DNA from: Peptococcaceae bacterium BICA1-8
GTDB lineage: Bacteria; Bacillota; Peptococcia; Peptococcales; BICA1-8
Direction: 5' to 3'
Length of the DNA: 64,000 nt
NCBI GenBank assembly: GCA_000802045.1
Contig: JUEF01000030.1
Coordinates: 11,767-75,766 of the forward strand
Under the pieces are notes generated by a model that had not been told where the DNA came from, did no database searches, and saw only the letters and a program-made list of their open reading frames with translations. The translations under genes were made by a program, and so were the position numbers. The number at the start of each line of letters is the position of its first letter. Positions within the stretch are counted from its first letter, which is position 1. Positions 3,560 to 61,011 of this stretch are shown piece after piece.

Positions 3560-4018
3560 TTAGTCATTCAATCTAGTACTGTGATATTTTTCGCTTGAAC
3601 CTTCTAAAATGGAAGTTATTTTCTCTACGGTAATCCAATCATCCATATTACTCTGACGATTAAGTTTGAGAGTTTCAATAGTTTCAACATCTTTTATTTC
3701 TATTAGGCAAAGAATTTTTTTACCTGCCCAACGTTTTATTTGAGTATCAGTTAGGTTTAGTTTATTTTGATTTTCAGCAACTACCGCTTTTGATTCATCT
3801 TCTGTCATTTTTTCAGAATTAAATACGCTTTTAACAGTGGCTTTCGCATTAATTAATCCATTACCATTATTTTCAATAAAGTAAAGTGTTTCTCCTTCAA
3901 ATACTCTGCCATGAGGTAACTTTCTACCAGCTGCACCTCTAATAATCATTGTTTTTGTTCCATTTAAAATTTTTTCTAAAACCTTTGCTTTTGCATCGCA
4001 ATAAACTAAATGTTCCAT
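3560..4018 (-). CDS. ASCH/PUA-like domain protein
   Basis: 152-aa ORF. The N-terminal beta-rich segment (TMIIRGAAGRKLPHGRV..GETLYF) is typical of ASCH-fold proteins. This is a tentative call. Confidence 0.4.
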   Translation of the reverse strand: MEHLVYCDAKAKVLEKILNGTKTMIIRGAAGRKLPHGRVFEGETLYFIENNGNGLINAKATVKSVFNSEKMTEDESKAVVAENQNKLNLTDTQIKRWAGKKILCLIEIKDVETIETLKLNRQSNMDDWITVEKITSILEGSSEKYHSTRLND

Positions 4019-4440
4019 CTAAAGTACCCTCCCCATTTTTATTAGTTTATTAACACTATCATGACTCAACCTTTATCAAAACGAGAAATTCTATTTACCA
4101 TTGGAAATAACATTTTCTTCTATTCTTCATCTATTCATCTCTTAAACAAAGACAGGCAAAAATTGAACTCCCATATGTATGTGCCTTCTGCAGACGGTTC
4201 AGTACAACACAAGATTCATGAAGTTCTATATTCTTTTGTGCCATTTCAAAGGTCTCTCAGCTATTATGCTCCGAGGTCTTTTTTACTTTATTCATGGAAC
4301 ATCATAAATCTCTAATTTGTTATCTGACGGTTCGCCCTCATAGACTACCAAAAAGTTATTATTTGGGTGAAATCAGGAGCTTAGGTTTTGCTTGCAAATC
4401 TTAACCCCTAGCGAGCTGGCGTAGTCCATCAAAGGTGGAT

Positions 4441-5358
4441 TTAACGCTCTATTCCGAACAAATCACTTACCGATTTGTGCTTACGATGTAACAGCCAGGC
4501 TACGATCATGCCAAAAATAAATGTGGAAGAAGCTGTCTCTATCATGTGACTAAAGCGTACGCTTGCAATCGGTATAAGCGGATTTTCCAAAATGTGACCA
4601 ATGTTCTGCGGGATACTAAAGAGCAGACCTACAAGGATAGCCGTCCACCAGGCATTGATCTTTGAGCAACGAATAACCGGAAGAGCGCACAATGTCCAAA
4701 GCATGGCACGAAGAATCTGGAAGGAAAATAACCCAGGATCTGTACGCAAGGTATTGGATGTATGCGTCCAAAAAGGCAGAATTTCTCCCGGGCTTCCATA
4801 AAAAGCTCGTAACTCTGGGTTTTGCCAGGCAATGAAATATCCAGCACTCCAATACAGGACAAGATAGGCCATAACGATAACGACCAACTTCAATGCCCAC
4901 TGTTTCACGGGCATGACAAGTGCTGGATTAGACACTGAATCAGCCTTTCCACGACCTTTACCCAAAACCAACACCCCCAGTGGGACAAAGAAGAACGCGA
5001 TCGGAAAACCCATCACAAACAAACGTGGTAAAAGTTGTGCTCCAACCGTAATATTAGAAAGGAAATACCATGTCTCGATTTGCATAATGAATGTTACTGC
5101 ACCGTAATAGGCAAAAGATAATCCCAAGGCTAGTTTCCAGCCGCTCCAACGTGAGCTCAGAACCAGCCCCATCACCAACAGCGTATTGACAATACTAATA
5201 ATTAACATGCCAGTTTCCGCCGATACAAGCCCTGGCTCTGATTTGATATTCGGTATCAGCCCCAAAACAGCCTGCGCTCCACCGATGAAGAAGACGTTGA
5301 ACAACACGACAAGTACAATAAAACGTAAAATCCAACCTAGAACAGAAAAAGCCTTCAT
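4441..5358 (-). CDS. polytopic integral membrane protein, unknown family
   Basis: 305-aa ORF with about 8 hydrophobic segments. It is visibly more GC-rich than its neighbours. The nested ORFs on either strand are artefacts. Confidence 0.6.
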   Translation of the reverse strand: MKAFSVLGWILRFIVLVVLFNVFFIGGAQAVLGLIPNIKSEPGLVSAETGMLIISIVNTLLVMGLVLSSRWSGWKLALGLSFAYYGAVTFIMQIETWYFLSNITVGAQLLPRLFVMGFPIAFFFVPLGVLVLGKGRGKADSVSNPALVMPVKQWALKLVVIVMAYLVLYWSAGYFIAWQNPELRAFYGSPGEILPFWTHTSNTLRTDPGLFSFQILRAMLWTLCALPVIRCSKINAWWTAILVGLLFSIPQNIGHILENPLIPIASVRFSHMIETASSTFIFGMIVAWLLHRKHKSVSDLFGIER

Positions 5359-7262: not shown

Positions 7263-7952
7263 TCATAATCTTAAACACAAGGTTTTACTCTCACACTTTA
7301 TTTTTTTAACAAATTTCAAGTTAGATAATTCTATCGAACCTTCTAATTTGTTTTCACTAAATGGCCTAATTACAAAGCAGATTTCTCTAAACCCATTACT
7401 AGAATTAAATAAGTCTTTTAGCTTACAAAAAAAGATTGTTTCTGTAGGAGCTACAGGGATATTAATTTTATTTTCTAAATTTCCAAACTTCGCTTCAAGT
7501 ACAAAAGTTTTAATGTCTGTTGATTTACATTTAAAGCTCAAGTAGTATCCCTTATCATAATACTCTTCTAAATCATCGATACCTGTAATTACATAACTTA
7601 CCCAATTGTCTGAATTATCAGTGATATGATGATACTTTAATGCCAGTATGTTATTATTTGCGTATGCTTCAATTGTTCCTGGCAACTCATAACTAGTATA
7701 AATACCTCTTTTTTTGCCTAACCCATTTTCTATGTTAACTAACTTAGCTAATTCTAACGAAGTAAATTGAAAATCATCAAGTTCTCTTTCTTTTAAATTT
7801 TTAAATATTTCTCTTATACCACTTAAACTATTTAATATTTTTTTCTGAAATCTTTTAGAAAAAAAGAATACTACAGCCAGAATCATACTTAGAATCCCTA
7901 TCATATTAAGAAAAATACTACTTATATCACTAAATGATTTTAAAAAATGCAT
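7263..7952 (-). CDS. orphan membrane-anchored protein (N-terminal TM plus beta-rich domain)
   Basis: 229-aa AT-rich ORF with RBS AGGGGG upstream. No recognisable family. Confidence 0.5.
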   Translation of the reverse strand: MHFLKSFSDISSIFLNMIGILSMILAVVFFFSKRFQKKILNSLSGIREIFKNLKERELDDFQFTSLELAKLVNIENGLGKKRGIYTSYELPGTIEAYANNNILALKYHHITDNSDNWVSYVITGIDDLEEYYDKGYYLSFKCKSTDIKTFVLEAKFGNLENKINIPVAPTETIFFCKLKDLFNSSNGFREICFVIRPFSENKLEGSIELSNLKFVKKIKCESKTLCLRL

Positions 7953-9044: not shown

Positions 9045-9890
9045 GCCTCATCTTTCCGAGTCATGGTAGACGCATCGGTTACCCGACGCACCGGGCTCCT
9101 CGAGAATACTCCCTTCCGTAATCGGCTATCATTAATAGCCTCTTGGTATTTTTCGCAGTGAGGTTGGCACCATTTATCCAGCCCTGCATGTCCGGTAGGT
9201 GTTTCCTTTGCAAATTGCGTATTCCCGTTAATCCCTTCCCCATGTAGCCGGCTCTCTCGACCTCATAGTAATATGGATTAATCCGACTTCCTATAGGTCT
9301 TCGGTCAGCCTCTTTGTCGATTGCACATTCCTACCAATAATATTTATATAACTGGAACCTATAGGATCTCCCAAGTTCCGGATACTTCTCTCCATACATG
9401 CCACGTTCTAGGACCCCGACAGACCCTCCAAAATCTCACCAATAGCGATTTTTTTGTATTACTTCCGTGACATTAAACACGTCGTCATCTGCATTTTCCT
9501 CTGTTTCCAGAGTCCACGGTTAACGGGGCTCAATTGTGCTTCAGGGATTACGGTCTCCCTTATGGCCTATATGGTTCTCTAGGTAAAGAATCTAAGCGAT
9601 TCACACAAAAACTAAAAAAAGGTTTTTGGTTCTCTGCTTATGTGTACATTCACCTAGCAGTTACCAGTTTCGGCGCAACACTCGATATGGGTGGCTGGTT
9701 AGGCCTTGCCCAACAGGGACTTTCACCCTGCAAGAAGTACCAAACTTCGCTTGGCGTACTAACGTTCCCGGCATTCCCGACGCTCACCAACCTTAACGCC
9801 TTACCCAATAGGGTGAGTGTGGTCCGGCATGCTACTTGATTAAACTATACCGGACCCGTAAGTGGGAATGGACGTGTTAGCCGGGGTAGC
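9045..9890 (-). ncRNA. GC-rich ORF-free structured segment, family unassigned (degenerate group-II-intron-like or other large ncRNA, or decayed DNA)
   Basis: About 0.85 kb with no credible ORF in six frames and many local hairpins. On the minus strand, GAGCCCGGU-GCGUCGG-GUAA-CCGAUGC (9058-9098) resembles a domain-5-like GNRA hairpin with an AGC base. GGGUGAAAGUCCC lies near 9717-9729. Confidence 0.3.
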
Positions 9891-26455: not shown

Positions 26456-26817
26456 ATTGCGTCTGATAGTTGCTATTTGGTTAATTTGTTGCGTCTGACA
26501 TTACTTCTTCGTTAAATTGTTGCGTCTGATTTACTTTGGGGCCATTCTCTTGCTTCTGACAAGTATTGTCATTGCGAAGGCGTTAACCTGTGGCAATCTC
26601 TGGGTCGGAGATCGCCACGCTACGCTCGCGATGACAGGATCACTAATGCGAACTAGGAAAGGAGATATACCTGCAAAAGCGCAGGAATATCCCCTTTATT
26701 GTGCGGTTAATTTGGGGGCAAAACTTTGCGTCTGACTAATACTGATTGGTTATTTGTTACGTCTAATCGGTTATCTAATTGGTCTAATAGTACTTCTAAG
26801 TGAGCATTTGCGTCTAA
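26456..26817. repeat. phased array of TTGCGTCTGA-type motifs (31-32-bp period)
   Basis: Copies start at 26456, 26488, 26519 and 26550, then 26725, 26756 and 26806. GTCATTGCGA...TCGCGATGAC inverted segment at 26568-26634. Confidence 0.7.
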
Positions 26818-26942: not shown

Positions 26943-27069
26943 GTAGGCTGTTAAAAAATATTAGATAGCTAGGCGCAAAAAGGGGGCAAAACCGGAGGCG
27001 TACTAAAGTACGTTGAGGATTTTGACCCCTTTTGGGTACGACGCTAGATGATGTTTTTTAGCAGCCTAC
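26943..27069. repeat. ~125-nt long-hairpin element, copy A
   Basis: Three-stem hairpin with conserved boxes AGCTAGGCG, CCGGAGGCGTA, TACGTTGAGGAT and ACGACGCTAG. It ends 3 nt from the stop codon at 27073. Confidence 0.75.
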
Positions 27070-27072
27070 TTT

Positions 27073-28461
27073 TTACATGAGGAATATTGCCATGACAGTA
27101 GCTCCCAACAATCCTAACATAACGGGGATAAAGTTTCTCCGTGCTAATTCCATCGGGTCAACACCACAAATAGCAGCAACTGGAATTAATCCCCAAGGTA
27201 CTACTGTTCCGCCACCTATCCAGACAGAAGACAATTGTCCTAAGGCTGCTAAGGTTCCTTTGTCAACAGCAATAGCACTGCCAAAGGTTTGGGCCAATGA
27301 GCCTACTAAAGGTAGCCCTGAGAATCCCGAACCATCCAAACCGGTAATTCCACCAATTATTACTTGAATAAAAGCTACCGGTATCCTACTTAAAGGAACA
27401 TTATTAGCTAACGCATAACCCAAATCGGTCAAAAGACCAGTTGCTTGTTCACCTAGGATAACTTTAGCTGTTCCCTCTGAACCCAAGAAGAAGAAACCTC
27501 CGATTACAATTACAGGAGCAAAGATTTTAATTCCGAACATAAAGCCATCCCGGATGTAATCAGTAATTTTCTCCAGAGAATCAGTGCCAAATTGGAGAAT
27601 AGCTGCCAAGCACATAATAGCTGCTGCCGTACCTCCAATTAAAGCAGTAGCATCTCCACCCCGTATTTCGTATAAATACATGAATAGTACATCCAAACCG
27701 AAGGCTACTGGAATCAAAATTGCAATAAAGTAAGACACCCAGGTAAATTTCTGATTAGCCTTGGCTTCCTGATCTTTGGCCATTTGTTTTTGTTCAACTT
27801 TTATTGCCTCCTGATTTTTATTTATGTCTTTTTTGAGCATGATAAATGCTGTCACACTAGCAATAATTGAACAAGTTAACCATAAAGGAATACTTGGTCC
27901 GATTACTCCTGTTGCATCGGCAAACCCTGCTGATTTAGCAGTAATAGCCGGAGCACCTTGAATAAAGTAATCTGATGATAAAGCAATACCATGACCAAAT
28001 ATATTCATAGAAATTGCTGCACCAATAACCGGAAGTCCTGCTCTAACAGCTACTGGAAGAACAATGGCACCAATTAATGCTACAGCTGGTGATGGCCAAA
28101 CAAACCAGGATACTAGAAGCATAGCAATACCTAAAACCCAAAAAGCTATATTTGCGTTAACCATTGCCCGTGAGGCTGGCTGCATTACAATATAATCAGC
28201 ACCGACATCAGCTAAAGCTTTAGACATAGCTACAACCAGGGATATAATGGCAATAATTCCCCAGAACTCATTACCGGCAGCAATTAAAGCATTATATACT
28301 ACCTGTAGCCCTCCGATAAGACTGCCTTTTGCTGATAATCCAATAACAAATAAGCCTATAAAACAAGGCAATACCGTATCCCTGCGCAAAATCATGGTAA
28401 CCAAAACTATTAATACCATGAAAACATATATCCAATGTAATGAGGTTAATTGTACTTCCAC
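27073..28461 (-). CDS. polytopic permease (ion-transporter superfamily-like; substrate unknown)
   Basis: 462 aa, more than 10 TM, with a central hydrophilic loop. Resembles DcuC/YfcC/NhaC-type carriers. Confidence 0.6.
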   Translation of the reverse strand: MEVQLTSLHWIYVFMVLIVLVTMILRRDTVLPCFIGLFVIGLSAKGSLIGGLQVVYNALIAAGNEFWGIIAIISLVVAMSKALADVGADYIVMQPASRAMVNANIAFWVLGIAMLLVSWFVWPSPAVALIGAIVLPVAVRAGLPVIGAAISMNIFGHGIALSSDYFIQGAPAITAKSAGFADATGVIGPSIPLWLTCSIIASVTAFIMLKKDINKNQEAIKVEQKQMAKDQEAKANQKFTWVSYFIAILIPVAFGLDVLFMYLYEIRGGDATALIGGTAAAIMCLAAILQFGTDSLEKITDYIRDGFMFGIKIFAPVIVIGGFFFLGSEGTAKVILGEQATGLLTDLGYALANNVPLSRIPVAFIQVIIGGITGLDGSGFSGLPLVGSLAQTFGSAIAVDKGTLAALGQLSSVWIGGGTVVPWGLIPVAAICGVDPMELARRNFIPVMLGLLGATVMAIFLM

Positions 28462-48943: not shown

Positions 48944-49003
48944 GGCCGTTCAAAAAGGCGTAGAACAAGGCCAAAAAGGGGTCAAAACCGGAGGCGTAAA
49001 TAC
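48944..49003. repeat. left half-copy of the ~125-nt hairpin element
   Basis: ggccgttcaaaaag...aaaaaggggtcaaaaccggaggcgtaaatac matches the 5' arm of copy A but has no 3' arm. Confidence 0.6.
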
Positions 49004-49024: not shown

Positions 49025-49144
49025 GGGTGCTCAAAAGTGGTAGATAGCTAGGCATATTTTAAGCCCAAGACCGCAGGCGTATATTAATACGTTGAGGATC
49101 TTGGGCTTAAAATTAACGACGCTAGGTGCCGCTTTTCAGCACCC
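49025..49144. repeat. ~125-nt long-hairpin element, copy B
   Basis: Same conserved boxes as copy A with different but self-complementary stems. It ends 2 nt from the copZ stop codon. Confidence 0.75.
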
Positions 49145-49146
49145 TA

Positions 49147-49380
49147 TTACACTGTGTAGCCTTCTTCAGTAATAACAGCTTTAACAGCCTCTAAGGTAAC
49201 CATATTAGCATCATATTCAACTTTAACTTCTTTTGCAGCTAAATCTACTTCCACACTTTCTACACCATTTAAAGCACCAACTGCTTTTAAAACTGCATTT
49301 TTACAATGATCACAGGTCATTCCTTCTACTTTTAGTACTTCAGCATGTACATGGCGATGACCACCACAGCATTCACACAT
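49147..49380 (-). CDS. copZ: copper chaperone CopZ (HMA domain) with a Cys/His-rich N-terminal tag
   Basis: GMTCDHC metal-binding motif. N-terminus MCECCGGHRHVH. Confidence 0.85.
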   Translation of the reverse strand: MCECCGGHRHVHAEVLKVEGMTCDHCKNAVLKAVGALNGVESVEVDLAAKEVKVEYDANMVTLEAVKAVITEEGYTV

Positions 49381-60656: not shown

Positions 60657-60780
60657 AAGGCAGTTCAAAAACGAGTATAGCTAGGCGTATTTAATGACCG
60701 AAACCGGAGTCGTATATGTAATACGTCGAGGATTTCGGTCATTAAAACAACGACGCTAGACGAAGTTTTTCAACTGCCTT
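60657..60780. repeat. ~125-nt long-hairpin element, copy C
   Basis: Same boxes as copies A and B, with unique self-complementary stems. It ends 9 nt from the stop codon at 60790. Confidence 0.75.
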
Positions 60781-60789
60781 ATTCTACAT

Positions 60790-61011
60790 CTAGCTAACTA
60801 GTTCGGTAACCTGTCTTGCTACAATTCTAGCCCCAATGACCGAGACAAGATCACCGCCGGTCGAATTGATAATATTTGCAGTGATAATGTCGTTCATAGC
60901 TGTTCCAACATCTACAGCAGTTAGATCCTCTCTAGGGTCTAGAATACTTATGGTCACACGACCGTTGGCTGCATTAGCAAATATCATCTGCAGGGTTTTA
61001 GTTTCTTCCAT
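60790..61011 (-). CDS. DUF2922 family protein
   Basis: 73 aa. The pattern TLQMIFANAANGRVTISILDPREDLT is typical of DUF2922, and it is adjacent to DUF1659. Confidence 0.6.
   Translation of the reverse strand: MEETKTLQMIFANAANGRVTISILDPREDLTAVDVGTAMNDIITANIINSTGGDLVSVIGARIVARQVTELVS

Follow-up and report, generated by a model that had tools for sequence, protein, structure and literature searches.

Three copies of a hairpin element in the genome of Peptococcaceae bacterium BICA1-8 are members of a family that crosses phyla, being present in Nitrospirota and in Peptococcaceae/Thermincola-like Bacillota, with subfamilies at different loci. The family, apparently undescribed, keeps its internal loops nearly constant while the stems around them vary and stay paired, and one end of the hairpin is docked on or beside the stop codon of a gene read from the opposite strand. 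Our preferred reading, to which we give an even chance, is that the three copies are a non-autonomous hairpin repeat of the REP/REPIN-MITE kind, handled in single-stranded form and recognised by a factor encoded elsewhere; on this reading the DNA of the family is, or once was, mobile. The features of the window, by which we mean the whole 64,000-nucleotide stretch analysed, are as follows (P3 is the variable helix inward of the first internal loop).

26943-27069, plus strand: copy A, full element of the A-type subfamily with GTAG...CTAC feet; ΔG -63.9 kcal/mol, z -10.6; covariance model score 93.7 bits
26967-26975, 26992-27002, 27009-27020 and 27038-27047, plus strand: the boxes of copy A
27073-27075, minus strand: TAA stop of a 462-residue membrane/transporter-like gene (27073-28461), 3 nt from copy A
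about 48944-49003, plus strand: left half copy, comprising the outer 5′ arm, a box 1-like GAACAAGGCC, the P3 arm GGGGTCAAAA and then CCGGAGGCGTA
49025-49144, plus strand: copy B, full element of the same subfamily as L006 (Bacillota MAG005); z -9.4; covariance model score 96.2 bits
49147-49149, minus strand: TAA stop of a copZ-like HMA gene (49147-49380), 2 nt from copy B
60657-60780, plus strand: copy C, full element; z -8.5; covariance model score 97 bits
60790-60792, minus strand: TAG stop of a DUF2922 gene (60790-61011), 9 nt from copy C
Box 1, AGCTAGGCR: starts at 26967 (A), 49046 (B) and 60679 (C)
Box 2, CCGSAGKCGTA: starts at 26992 (A), 49071 (B) and 60704 (C)
Box 3, TACGTYGAGGAT: starts at 27009 (A), 49088 (B) and 60722 (C)
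Box 4, ACGACGCTAG: starts at 27038 (A), 49116 (B) and 60750 (C)

An earlier note on this DNA had described three copies with four boxes in constant order and a left half copy, and all are found where it placed them. The half copy runs from the outer 5′ arm through GGCGTAA and is broken in the apical hairpin. Exact matches in the window to the three longer boxes are confined to element copies, the fourth CCGSAGKCGTA site (48988) falling within the half copy; with one mismatch allowed, 0.6-0.9 sites are expected by chance for the two boxes so scanned. On the plus strand the three full copies fold at -51 to -64 kcal/mol with z-scores of -8.5 to -10.6, and no shuffled sequence folds equally well; the minus strand also folds strongly (z -7.8 to -9.0). 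Each copy is one long, unbranched hairpin interrupted by internal loops, the fold that had been drawn from the letters, with z-scores far beyond the shuffles. The spacing of 3, 2 and 9 nt from minus-strand stop codons likewise holds, the reading frames ending at 27073, 49147 and 60790. In gene direction the TAA of the copZ-like gene is followed by an in-frame TAG, the G being supplied by copy B as its first base, and copy C sits between two minus-strand genes of the same gene cluster. The gene identities proposed in the note fared unevenly: Pfam bears out the HMA/CopZ protein beside copy B and the DUF2922 protein beside copy C, whereas a Pfam search with the 462-residue protein beside copy A, which had been called a permease, gave no match, one homologue carrying the source name ‘Transporter’.

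The consensus shows an inner module of about 85 nt, conserved in sequence, which consists of two internal loops and an apical stem. Internal loop 1 is formed by box 1 (AGCWAGGC) opposite box 4 (GAACGANGCT), and internal loop 2, GGA/GA, by boxes 2 and 3. The module is wrapped by an outer stem of about 12 pairs (GGCTGYTCAAAA.../...TTTTCARCAGCC) with a conserved C·C mismatch inside TCAAAA/TTTTCA that is a T-A pair in copy A. Reading inward, the outer stem is followed by a short AGC/GCT helix, the box 1/box 4 loop, the variable P3, two C-G pairs, the GGA/GA loop and the apical stem. This last stem starts with two G·U pairs, each all but invariant (122 and 123 of 131 copies), and carries a variable apical loop.

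These 131 copies were collected with a covariance model (R1) built from 28 diverse copies and run on 672 kb of fetched DNA, and their stems covary. Standard pairs occupy 93.4% of cells, compared with 72.8% in column shuffles, none of 500 of which reached the observed value, and 30-46% of cells are paired when the partner is slid along. Double-sided changes occur in 34 of the 39 pairs, so the copies do not lack the compensatory changes whose absence would have spoken against a selected fold. Compensation can also be followed at a single orthologous Nitrospira locus, where P3 reads CAAACA/TGTTTG in L002 and TGAAAA/TTTTCA in L007, with a mixed, partly mismatched intermediate in L009. Since many copies are related, part of the covariation is inherited subfamily difference. 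The proposal of covarying stems around fixed loops is upheld for the family. Copies A, B and C differ in their stems and yet keep them complementary, part of this covariation being inherited difference between subfamilies and not evolution in place. Pairing is all that the stems require, and they differ accordingly from one subfamily to another.

When a genome collection was scanned with boxes 3 and 4, matches were obtained in Clostridiaceae bacterium BRH_c20a, Bacillota MAG005 (two copies), Thermincola ferriacetica and six Nitrospira/Nitrospiraceae MAGs, and across these genomes the loop boxes are near-identical while the stems differ yet remain complementary. A metagenome scan with the apical core recovered at least 120 contigs from soil, sediment and groundwater, the commonest form among the matches listed being 127 nt long (GCAGGATGCTCAAAAAGGCCGTCCAGCAAGGCCGCAGGCGAGTCGAAACCGGAGGCGTACCC...GGGTACGTTGAGGATTTCGATGAGCCGAGAACGAAGCTGGCGGACTTTTTCAGCATCCTGC). 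After subtraction of the copies by which each contig had been recruited, density is about 45-55 copies per Mb, and the window, with 3.5 copies in 64 kb, equals the family in this respect. By the source names of its closest protein homologues, the window belongs to a Clostridia/Peptococcaceae-like subsurface bacterium. Variants occupy a 16S-23S spacer, a site downstream of a 5S gene and a gap between tRNAs, and both orientations are represented. Of ten loci in viral contigs one, L022, contains real variant copies, and the other nine are chance or coding matches. The eleventh match of the genome-collection scan, in a Thermoplasmata MAG (L003), proved to be a chance match within a coding repeat, so occurrence of the element in archaea is unsupported.

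The earlier note matched the element to no named repeat or RNA family, and Rfam 15 supplied none in strict or permissive scans. At the gathering threshold the whole window matched only a group II intron; at E<=10 copy B gave noise only; and at E<=0.1 eleven loci with Nitrospira-type and variant copies returned rRNA, tRNA and Flavo-1 elsewhere, the element itself being unmatched. Neither a window copy nor the Nitrospira consensus had a BLAST match among 72,556 plasmids, and full-text literature searches with core and arm strings gave only unrelated primer matches. The two internal loops had suggested the hairpin, twister-sister and other self-cleaving ribozymes; no ribozyme model appeared in the permissive Rfam scans, and the loop sequences presumably do not fit these ribozymes.

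The position of the element relative to stop codons, which the earlier note had seen for three copies, is a property of the family. It was measured from the model's own edges on the 95 copies with at least 150 nt on each side. A long opposite-strand ORF ends between -6 and +25 nt from the 3′ edge in 62 of the 95, a same-strand ORF ends at the 5′ edge in 12, and both edges are so occupied in 8, the background rate of gene ends at random positions in the same contigs being 7.7% (exact binomial on the one-sided cases, 3′ versus 5′ edge, p = 3e-12). The stop codon shares bases with the outer end of the stem in 36 copies, an overlap seen in none of the 12 opposite (5′ edge) cases, and 25 of these 36 share one exact offset, in which the stop is TA plus the element's first base on the gene strand. 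TAG is the most frequent overlapping stop, TAA is second and TGA is found in few. Five genes extend four codons into the element and end at a TGA made by the conserved mismatch. Nine of 11 Firmicute-type copies obey the same placement. In Nitrospira-type copies the gene-side flank is TA in about 70% and the opposite flank is TCYY. A comparable contribution is known from REP termini tagged with GTAG, a frequent source of the TAG stop for flanking ORFs (PMC3733652).

By an eye count, orientations are mixed in about 10 of some 25 multi-copy loci, which indicates that orientation is set by the gene and not by the replication fork. Restoration of the stop alone is insufficient to account for it, since the palindrome has G as its first base at either end. 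A fixed orientation calls for strand-specific insertion or else for an orientation-dependent function.

The two strands of the hairpin are not equivalent. In 52 of 55 copies the better fold, by a mean of 8 kcal/mol, belongs to the plus strand, the one antisense to the abutting gene, and the mismatches of this strand are those that a folding strand tolerates: among 73 copies de-replicated below 85% identity, and with the two invariant G·U pairs left out, the stems contain 145 G·T against 36 A·C and 135 purine·purine against 50 pyrimidine·pyrimidine mismatches, the lean by column being 28 one way and 2 the other. In the window the GC skew of the plus strand is -0.07 to -0.17 and 41 long ORFs lie on the minus strand against 13 on the plus strand; the minus strand is the leading and main coding strand here, and the foldable strand is the leading-strand template. 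Mutation bias was considered as the origin of the G·T excess in the window and rejected, as C-to-T pressure on the minus strand should give A·C instead. The strand signature points to single-stranded DNA or antisense RNA.

The simplest reading of hairpins at gene ends, a cis-acting 3′ UTR RNA element that stabilises mRNA against 3′ exonucleases, ends transcription, or tunes translation termination and ribosome rescue, is weakened by this signature since the foldable strand is absent from the neighbouring mRNA. In its favour, the element keeps one position and one orientation with respect to the upstream gene, and because the hairpin begins at the stop codon a terminating ribosome must open its base; an influence on termination and on ribosome rescue is reported for E. 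coli REPs that lie no more than 15 nt from a stop codon. Several copies are internal to operons and precede the next start codon by 9-35 nt, so that the gene-sense strand is certainly transcribed there, this strand has the strong fold given above, and copy A has been kept after the same gene in four species. We nevertheless consider a 3′ UTR role unlikely. The mismatch spectrum favours the other strand (G·T to A·C about 4:1, purine·purine to pyrimidine·pyrimidine about 2.7:1), the mRNA has A·C mismatches in place of both invariant G·U pairs, and the gene strand has neither a U-tract after the hairpin nor a terminator-like site. Moreover the variants beside rRNA and tRNA genes have both orientations, and the sibling forms behave as ordinary intergenic MITEs.

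The same asymmetry would suit a structured RNA made from the plus strand, antisense to the 3′ end of the gene, whose purine-rich loops (GGAGG, UGAGGA) might serve as binding sites for a protein or for the ribosome, in the manner of a CsrA-type GGA decoy, a K-turn-like tandem G·A motif or an anti-SD sponge. The two invariant G·U pairs, the excess of G·U and G·A, the loops themselves and the better plus-strand folds (the 52 of 55 copies) are in keeping with such an RNA, and the plus form is on the transcribed strand in L088 (16S-23S spacer) and L044 (between tRNAs). However, a conserved promoter upstream and a terminator downstream are both absent in scans of the window: promoter and terminator consensus scans around the three copies gave nothing consistent, and the only T-run, a feature expected of a Rho-independent terminator, follows copy A on the plus strand. 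Copies B and C are flanked on both sides by minus-strand genes, so plus-strand transcription there would be antisense to an operon; Rfam has no matching family; and the subfamilies, half copies and presence/absence differences are those of a repeat, unlike a single-copy RNA gene. We regard a plus-strand RNA as rather improbable. Two small plus-strand reading frames were also discarded: one of 14-16 codons, which stops at the boundary TAG, is uninterrupted in only 16 of 55 copies and missing from those of Firmicutes, and one of 23 codons in the 5′ arm shows no conservation in Firmicute copies.

Very improbable, finally, is an attC-like single-strand recombination site whose folded bottom strand after an ORF marks gene-plus-hairpin units for a site-specific recombinase, for although the element is an imperfect hairpin of about 125 nt with conserved unpaired bases, its folded strand antisense to an ORF whose stop codon it abuts or overlaps, and although some contigs (e.g. 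L024, L081 and L099) have serial units of short ORF and element and the 5′ arm GCTCAAA matches RYYYAAC at six of seven positions, the arms are AAA/TTT and lack the AAC/GTT triplets of R boxes, the window copies are 11-22 kb apart beside syntenic housekeeping genes (copZ-lipB, a transporter cluster), the clusters of flanking ORFs contain no integrase, and attC sites conserve structure and not long internal boxes.

A mobile, or once mobile, hairpin repeat is consistent with the turnover of copies. P3 of copy A (GGGGNCAAAA/TTTTGACCCC) recurs at unrelated loci in L005 and L010, and that of copy B in L006. The earlier note had asked whether the set of copies differs between strains, as mobility would imply, and filled and empty orthologous sites are found between related genomes of the family. 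A 173-nt sibling that begins directly after TA is present in L002 and absent from the orthologous sites of L007 and L009. For the 127-nt type an empty site (L118) reads gene 1, CAC-TAA, 11 nt, ATG of gene 2, and the filled site (L113) reads CAC-TAG, 127-nt hairpin, 24-nt tail, the same ATG; the last sense codon is kept, a stop is formed anew at the junction, and the filled site in L113 lacks flanking direct repeats. This is the sole clean filled/empty pair for the 127-nt type, and simple insertion fails to explain its 24-nt tail. Siblings with the same core form subfamilies with their own ends, one having GGGYCYG termini and TAA/TTA (TWA) flanks and a second GAGCCTGTCCG or GAGCCTGTCCGACATTG termini and CTAG flanks, and both are classically MITE-like.

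In the lineage of the window the copies appear settled. The locus of copy A has a copy in four species with 88-91% protein identity, and in L143, L145 and L146 the orthologous copy comes after the same gene; that of L145 is degenerate, and those of L143 and L146 contain other small hairpins as interruptions. A close relative (L147, 93% LipB identity) has only the first 11 nt or so of copy B and lacks the half copy. Copy C is identical in three other samples, which is uninformative on strain polymorphism. With strong differences among the window copies, and copy A present at one locus in four species, these copies lend no support to recent movement of the element in this genome.

The half copies of the window, L004, L109 and L146 are all broken in the apical hairpin, and at least 10 copies have some 45-85 nt of extra DNA exactly in the apical loop, one such insert being common to L009, L051 and L102. 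Breaks at the centre and insertions at the apex are the fate of extruded hairpins when palindromes are processed by SbcCD, and the two observations suggest that the hairpin is extruded in vivo. Logan contig L001 stops about 100 nt beyond the gene, inside copy A.

A search for a transposase or recombinase beside the copies, by clustering of 1,745 flanking ORFs, found only housekeeping families. Over more than 600 kb of flanks of copies from outside the window and L143-L149, a scan for HUH/Y1 motifs picked out two Y1-like ORFs (L064 and L086), each 4-5 kb from a copy and not flanked by copies, and none of the collected loci has a split copy enclosing a gene.

Assembled from these observations, the reading of the element as a single-stranded hairpin repeat would run as follows. 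The single-stranded hairpin would be the form that is handled, its conserved loops serving as the recognition surface for a trans-acting enzyme encoded elsewhere. Entry would be at TA, and copies entering the TA of a stop codon would survive best because the first base of the element, G or A, restores TAG or TAA and leaves the protein unchanged; the stop-codon TA would thus be a tolerated site and possibly a targeted one. The window copies would be old residents, vertically inherited and co-transcribed with the upstream gene, and if they acted on the mRNA at all, as a hairpin barrier at its 3′ end or by slowing termination, this would be a by-product. Several observations count against this reading. 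No mobilising protein was found among the flanking ORFs, and the window type has no target-site duplication and varies at its termini while conserving its interior, where an ordinary MITE does the opposite. The divergence of the window copies, a foldable strand that is contrary to the IS200/IS605 rule, the mixed orientations within loci and the single filled/empty pair with its extra tail weigh on the same side. The loops are also more conserved between phyla than is expected of a purely selfish repeat, and could instead reflect a host function. A bolder proposal, which we think doubtful, is that the element is a structure-specific mobile or recombining module, its 85-nt core docking a dedicated protein and the element inserting strand-specifically into the stop-codon TA, where its own first base rebuilds the stop, or else that the core is a widespread antisense or structured RNA with a conserved protein partner. 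If the insertion module were real, the gene end would be a safe harbour for insertion at the stop codon.

The element would add, for nitrite-oxidising Nitrospira and for Firmicutes of the subsurface, a widespread repeat family of about 50 copies per Mb that neither Rfam nor the literature searched contains. Its nearly invariant loops, free stems and stop-locked end point to a specific partner. It opens to experiment the ways in which small repeats select gene ends and persist there, and the question whether their action is that of single-stranded DNA or of RNA. Short-read assemblies break at the element, as in L001, and it could mislead the calling of gene 3′ ends and small ORFs.

In behaviour the family is most like the REP/BIME/REPIN elements mobilised by RAYT (TnpA-REP). 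These too are extragenic, high-copy hairpins at gene 3′ ends, without target duplication and with compensatory changes that maintain the hairpin, and their termini often supply the neighbour's stop codon, as the element does. Their transposase is encoded once, elsewhere in the genome, which we count as a likeness on the premise that an enzyme of the kind inferred here would be placed in the same way. The GTAG...CTAC ‘double feet’ of A-type copies resemble those of some long REPs (PMC6006769). The REP tag, GTAG or GTGG placed 0-2 nt 5′ of the hairpin foot, is present as GTAG in copy A, L005 and L010 (copy C has GTAA). Copy B, L006 and L011 lack it, as do the 55 Nitrospira-type copies, where the 5′ flank is TCYY and the 3′ flank TA(R). 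The differences are that the element is a continuous hairpin of about 125 nt with no arm predicted to fold on itself, where REPs are palindromes of 20-65 nt or inverted pairs of these; that its interior and not its foot is conserved, near-identically in two phyla, where REP families are lineage-specific; and that no RAYT flanked by copies was found.

Bacterial MITEs such as Correia/NEMIS, ERIC, RUP and bcr1 of Bacillus cereus resemble it as intergenic, imperfect palindromes of 100-170 nt that are co-transcribed with their neighbours, have subfamilies and differ in presence between genomes, and the siblings with the same core, with their terminal inverted repeats (TIRs) and TA/TWA/CTAG duplications, strengthen the likeness. 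In contrast, the window and 127-nt types have no flanking direct repeat, their termini vary and co-vary, conservation is concentrated in the internal loops, and orientation to the upstream stop codon is strict. Those four MITE families are moreover each restricted to a genus or group, whereas the element spans phyla.

With IS200/IS605 elements and PATEs it shares the absence of target duplication, asymmetric flanks (TA in about 70% on the gene-sense side, and TCYY, in the Nitrospira type) and dependence on a hairpin of one strand, but it has one long hairpin and not two small subterminal ones, and TA/TCYY signals in place of a fixed 4-5-nt target. Its orientation follows the gene and not the fork, and the strand that folds is, in the window, the template of the leading strand, where the IS200/IS605 rule ties orientation to the lagging-strand template. 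Integron attC sites likewise lie at the stop codon of an ORF with a folded strand antisense to it, unpaired bases that are conserved and an apex that varies; the element differs in having no RYYYAAC/GTTRRRY boxes (its arms are GCTCAAA/TTTTCAGC), no arrays, no integrase and syntenic housekeeping genes as neighbours. No named family is assigned, because the architecture is not that of REPs and the definitions of MITEs (for the window type), of IS200/IS605 and of attC all fail. What sets this family apart from each of these systems is the near-identity of its loops between Nitrospirota and Bacillota, the strand-specific signature of its fold and a docking on the stop codon that is precise to the base.

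At least 10 of the 131 copies matched by the covariance model in 672 kb of fetched DNA carry some 45-85 extra nt, and in these the extra DNA is confined to the apical loop. One insert of about 45 nt (GCATTCTCACCCGCCC...CCGAGCT...AGCTCTTTCCCGGGTGGG) recurs and marks out a 'long form':

L009, ~2590-2660: apical-loop insert
L102, ~2320-2370: apical-loop insert
L051, ~7860-7930: apical-loop insert

A subset of Nitrospira-type copies (L067, L089, L065, L092, L139 and L042) has a conserved extra module, CAGGATGCTGAAAAA...TCCGCACGTGTGGCACAACAGGAGAACACTCCC, in the roughly 80 nt on the element's 5' side, and its start is a direct repeat of the element terminus. The two tandem copies of Thermincola (L011) have a 20-nt flank in common.

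Variant copies also lie at stable-RNA genes, in mixed orientation relative to the stable-RNA transcript:

L088, 531-651: one copy in the 16S-23S rRNA spacer, immediately before the 23S 5' end
L028, 155-267 and 281-401: two copies downstream of a 5S gene
L044, 1522-1582 and 1734-1859: two copies between tRNA genes

Two further variant copies are found in a 41-kb IMG/VR viral contig (L022), where the element end and the following gene's ribosome-binding site overlap. A Flavo-1 RNA lies some 125 nt away from one of these two copies:

L022, 2941-3078, minus strand: Flavo-1 RNA (RF01705, 46 bits, which exceeds the gathering score)

At copy A, which abuts the gene for a 462-aa transporter-like protein in the window, a short-read contig carrying the same gene (L001, Logan SRR1539101) ends within the element, as would be expected of a repeat that disrupts assembly. 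Another type of small palindrome, with the forms GGGGACAYTCCTC...GAGGAATGTCCCC and GGGGAYATTCCTGCGCTTTTGCAGG...CCCC, sits inside or adjoins decayed copy A orthologues; its exact 16-mer has a single occurrence each in the window and in L146. Short tandem repeats follow the orthologue in L143, and words resembling them are also present at 3170-3230 of L147, a close relative at the copy B locus.

L143, 11445-11520: second small palindrome
L146, 6075-6250: second small palindrome
Window, ~26660-26700: second small palindrome
L143, 11560-11640: tandem CTATTGACCATCAA-type units, intergenic, after the copy A orthologue

IS200-like Y1/HUH genes and a group II intron match lie at these positions:

L064, ~3924-4680: IS200-like Y1/HUH protein, motif NHYH...YVVLNP
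L086, ~58-508: IS200-like Y1/HUH protein, same motif
Window, 9404-9723, minus strand: group II intron domains D1-D4 (Rfam RF02005, 83 bits, E = 1e-21)

Both Y1/HUH genes are 4-5 kb from element copies, which neither adjoin nor flank them; in about 130 loci, a count of two is not clearly in excess of chance. The RF02005 match indicates that a mobile retroelement, the group II intron, shares the window with the hairpin copies.
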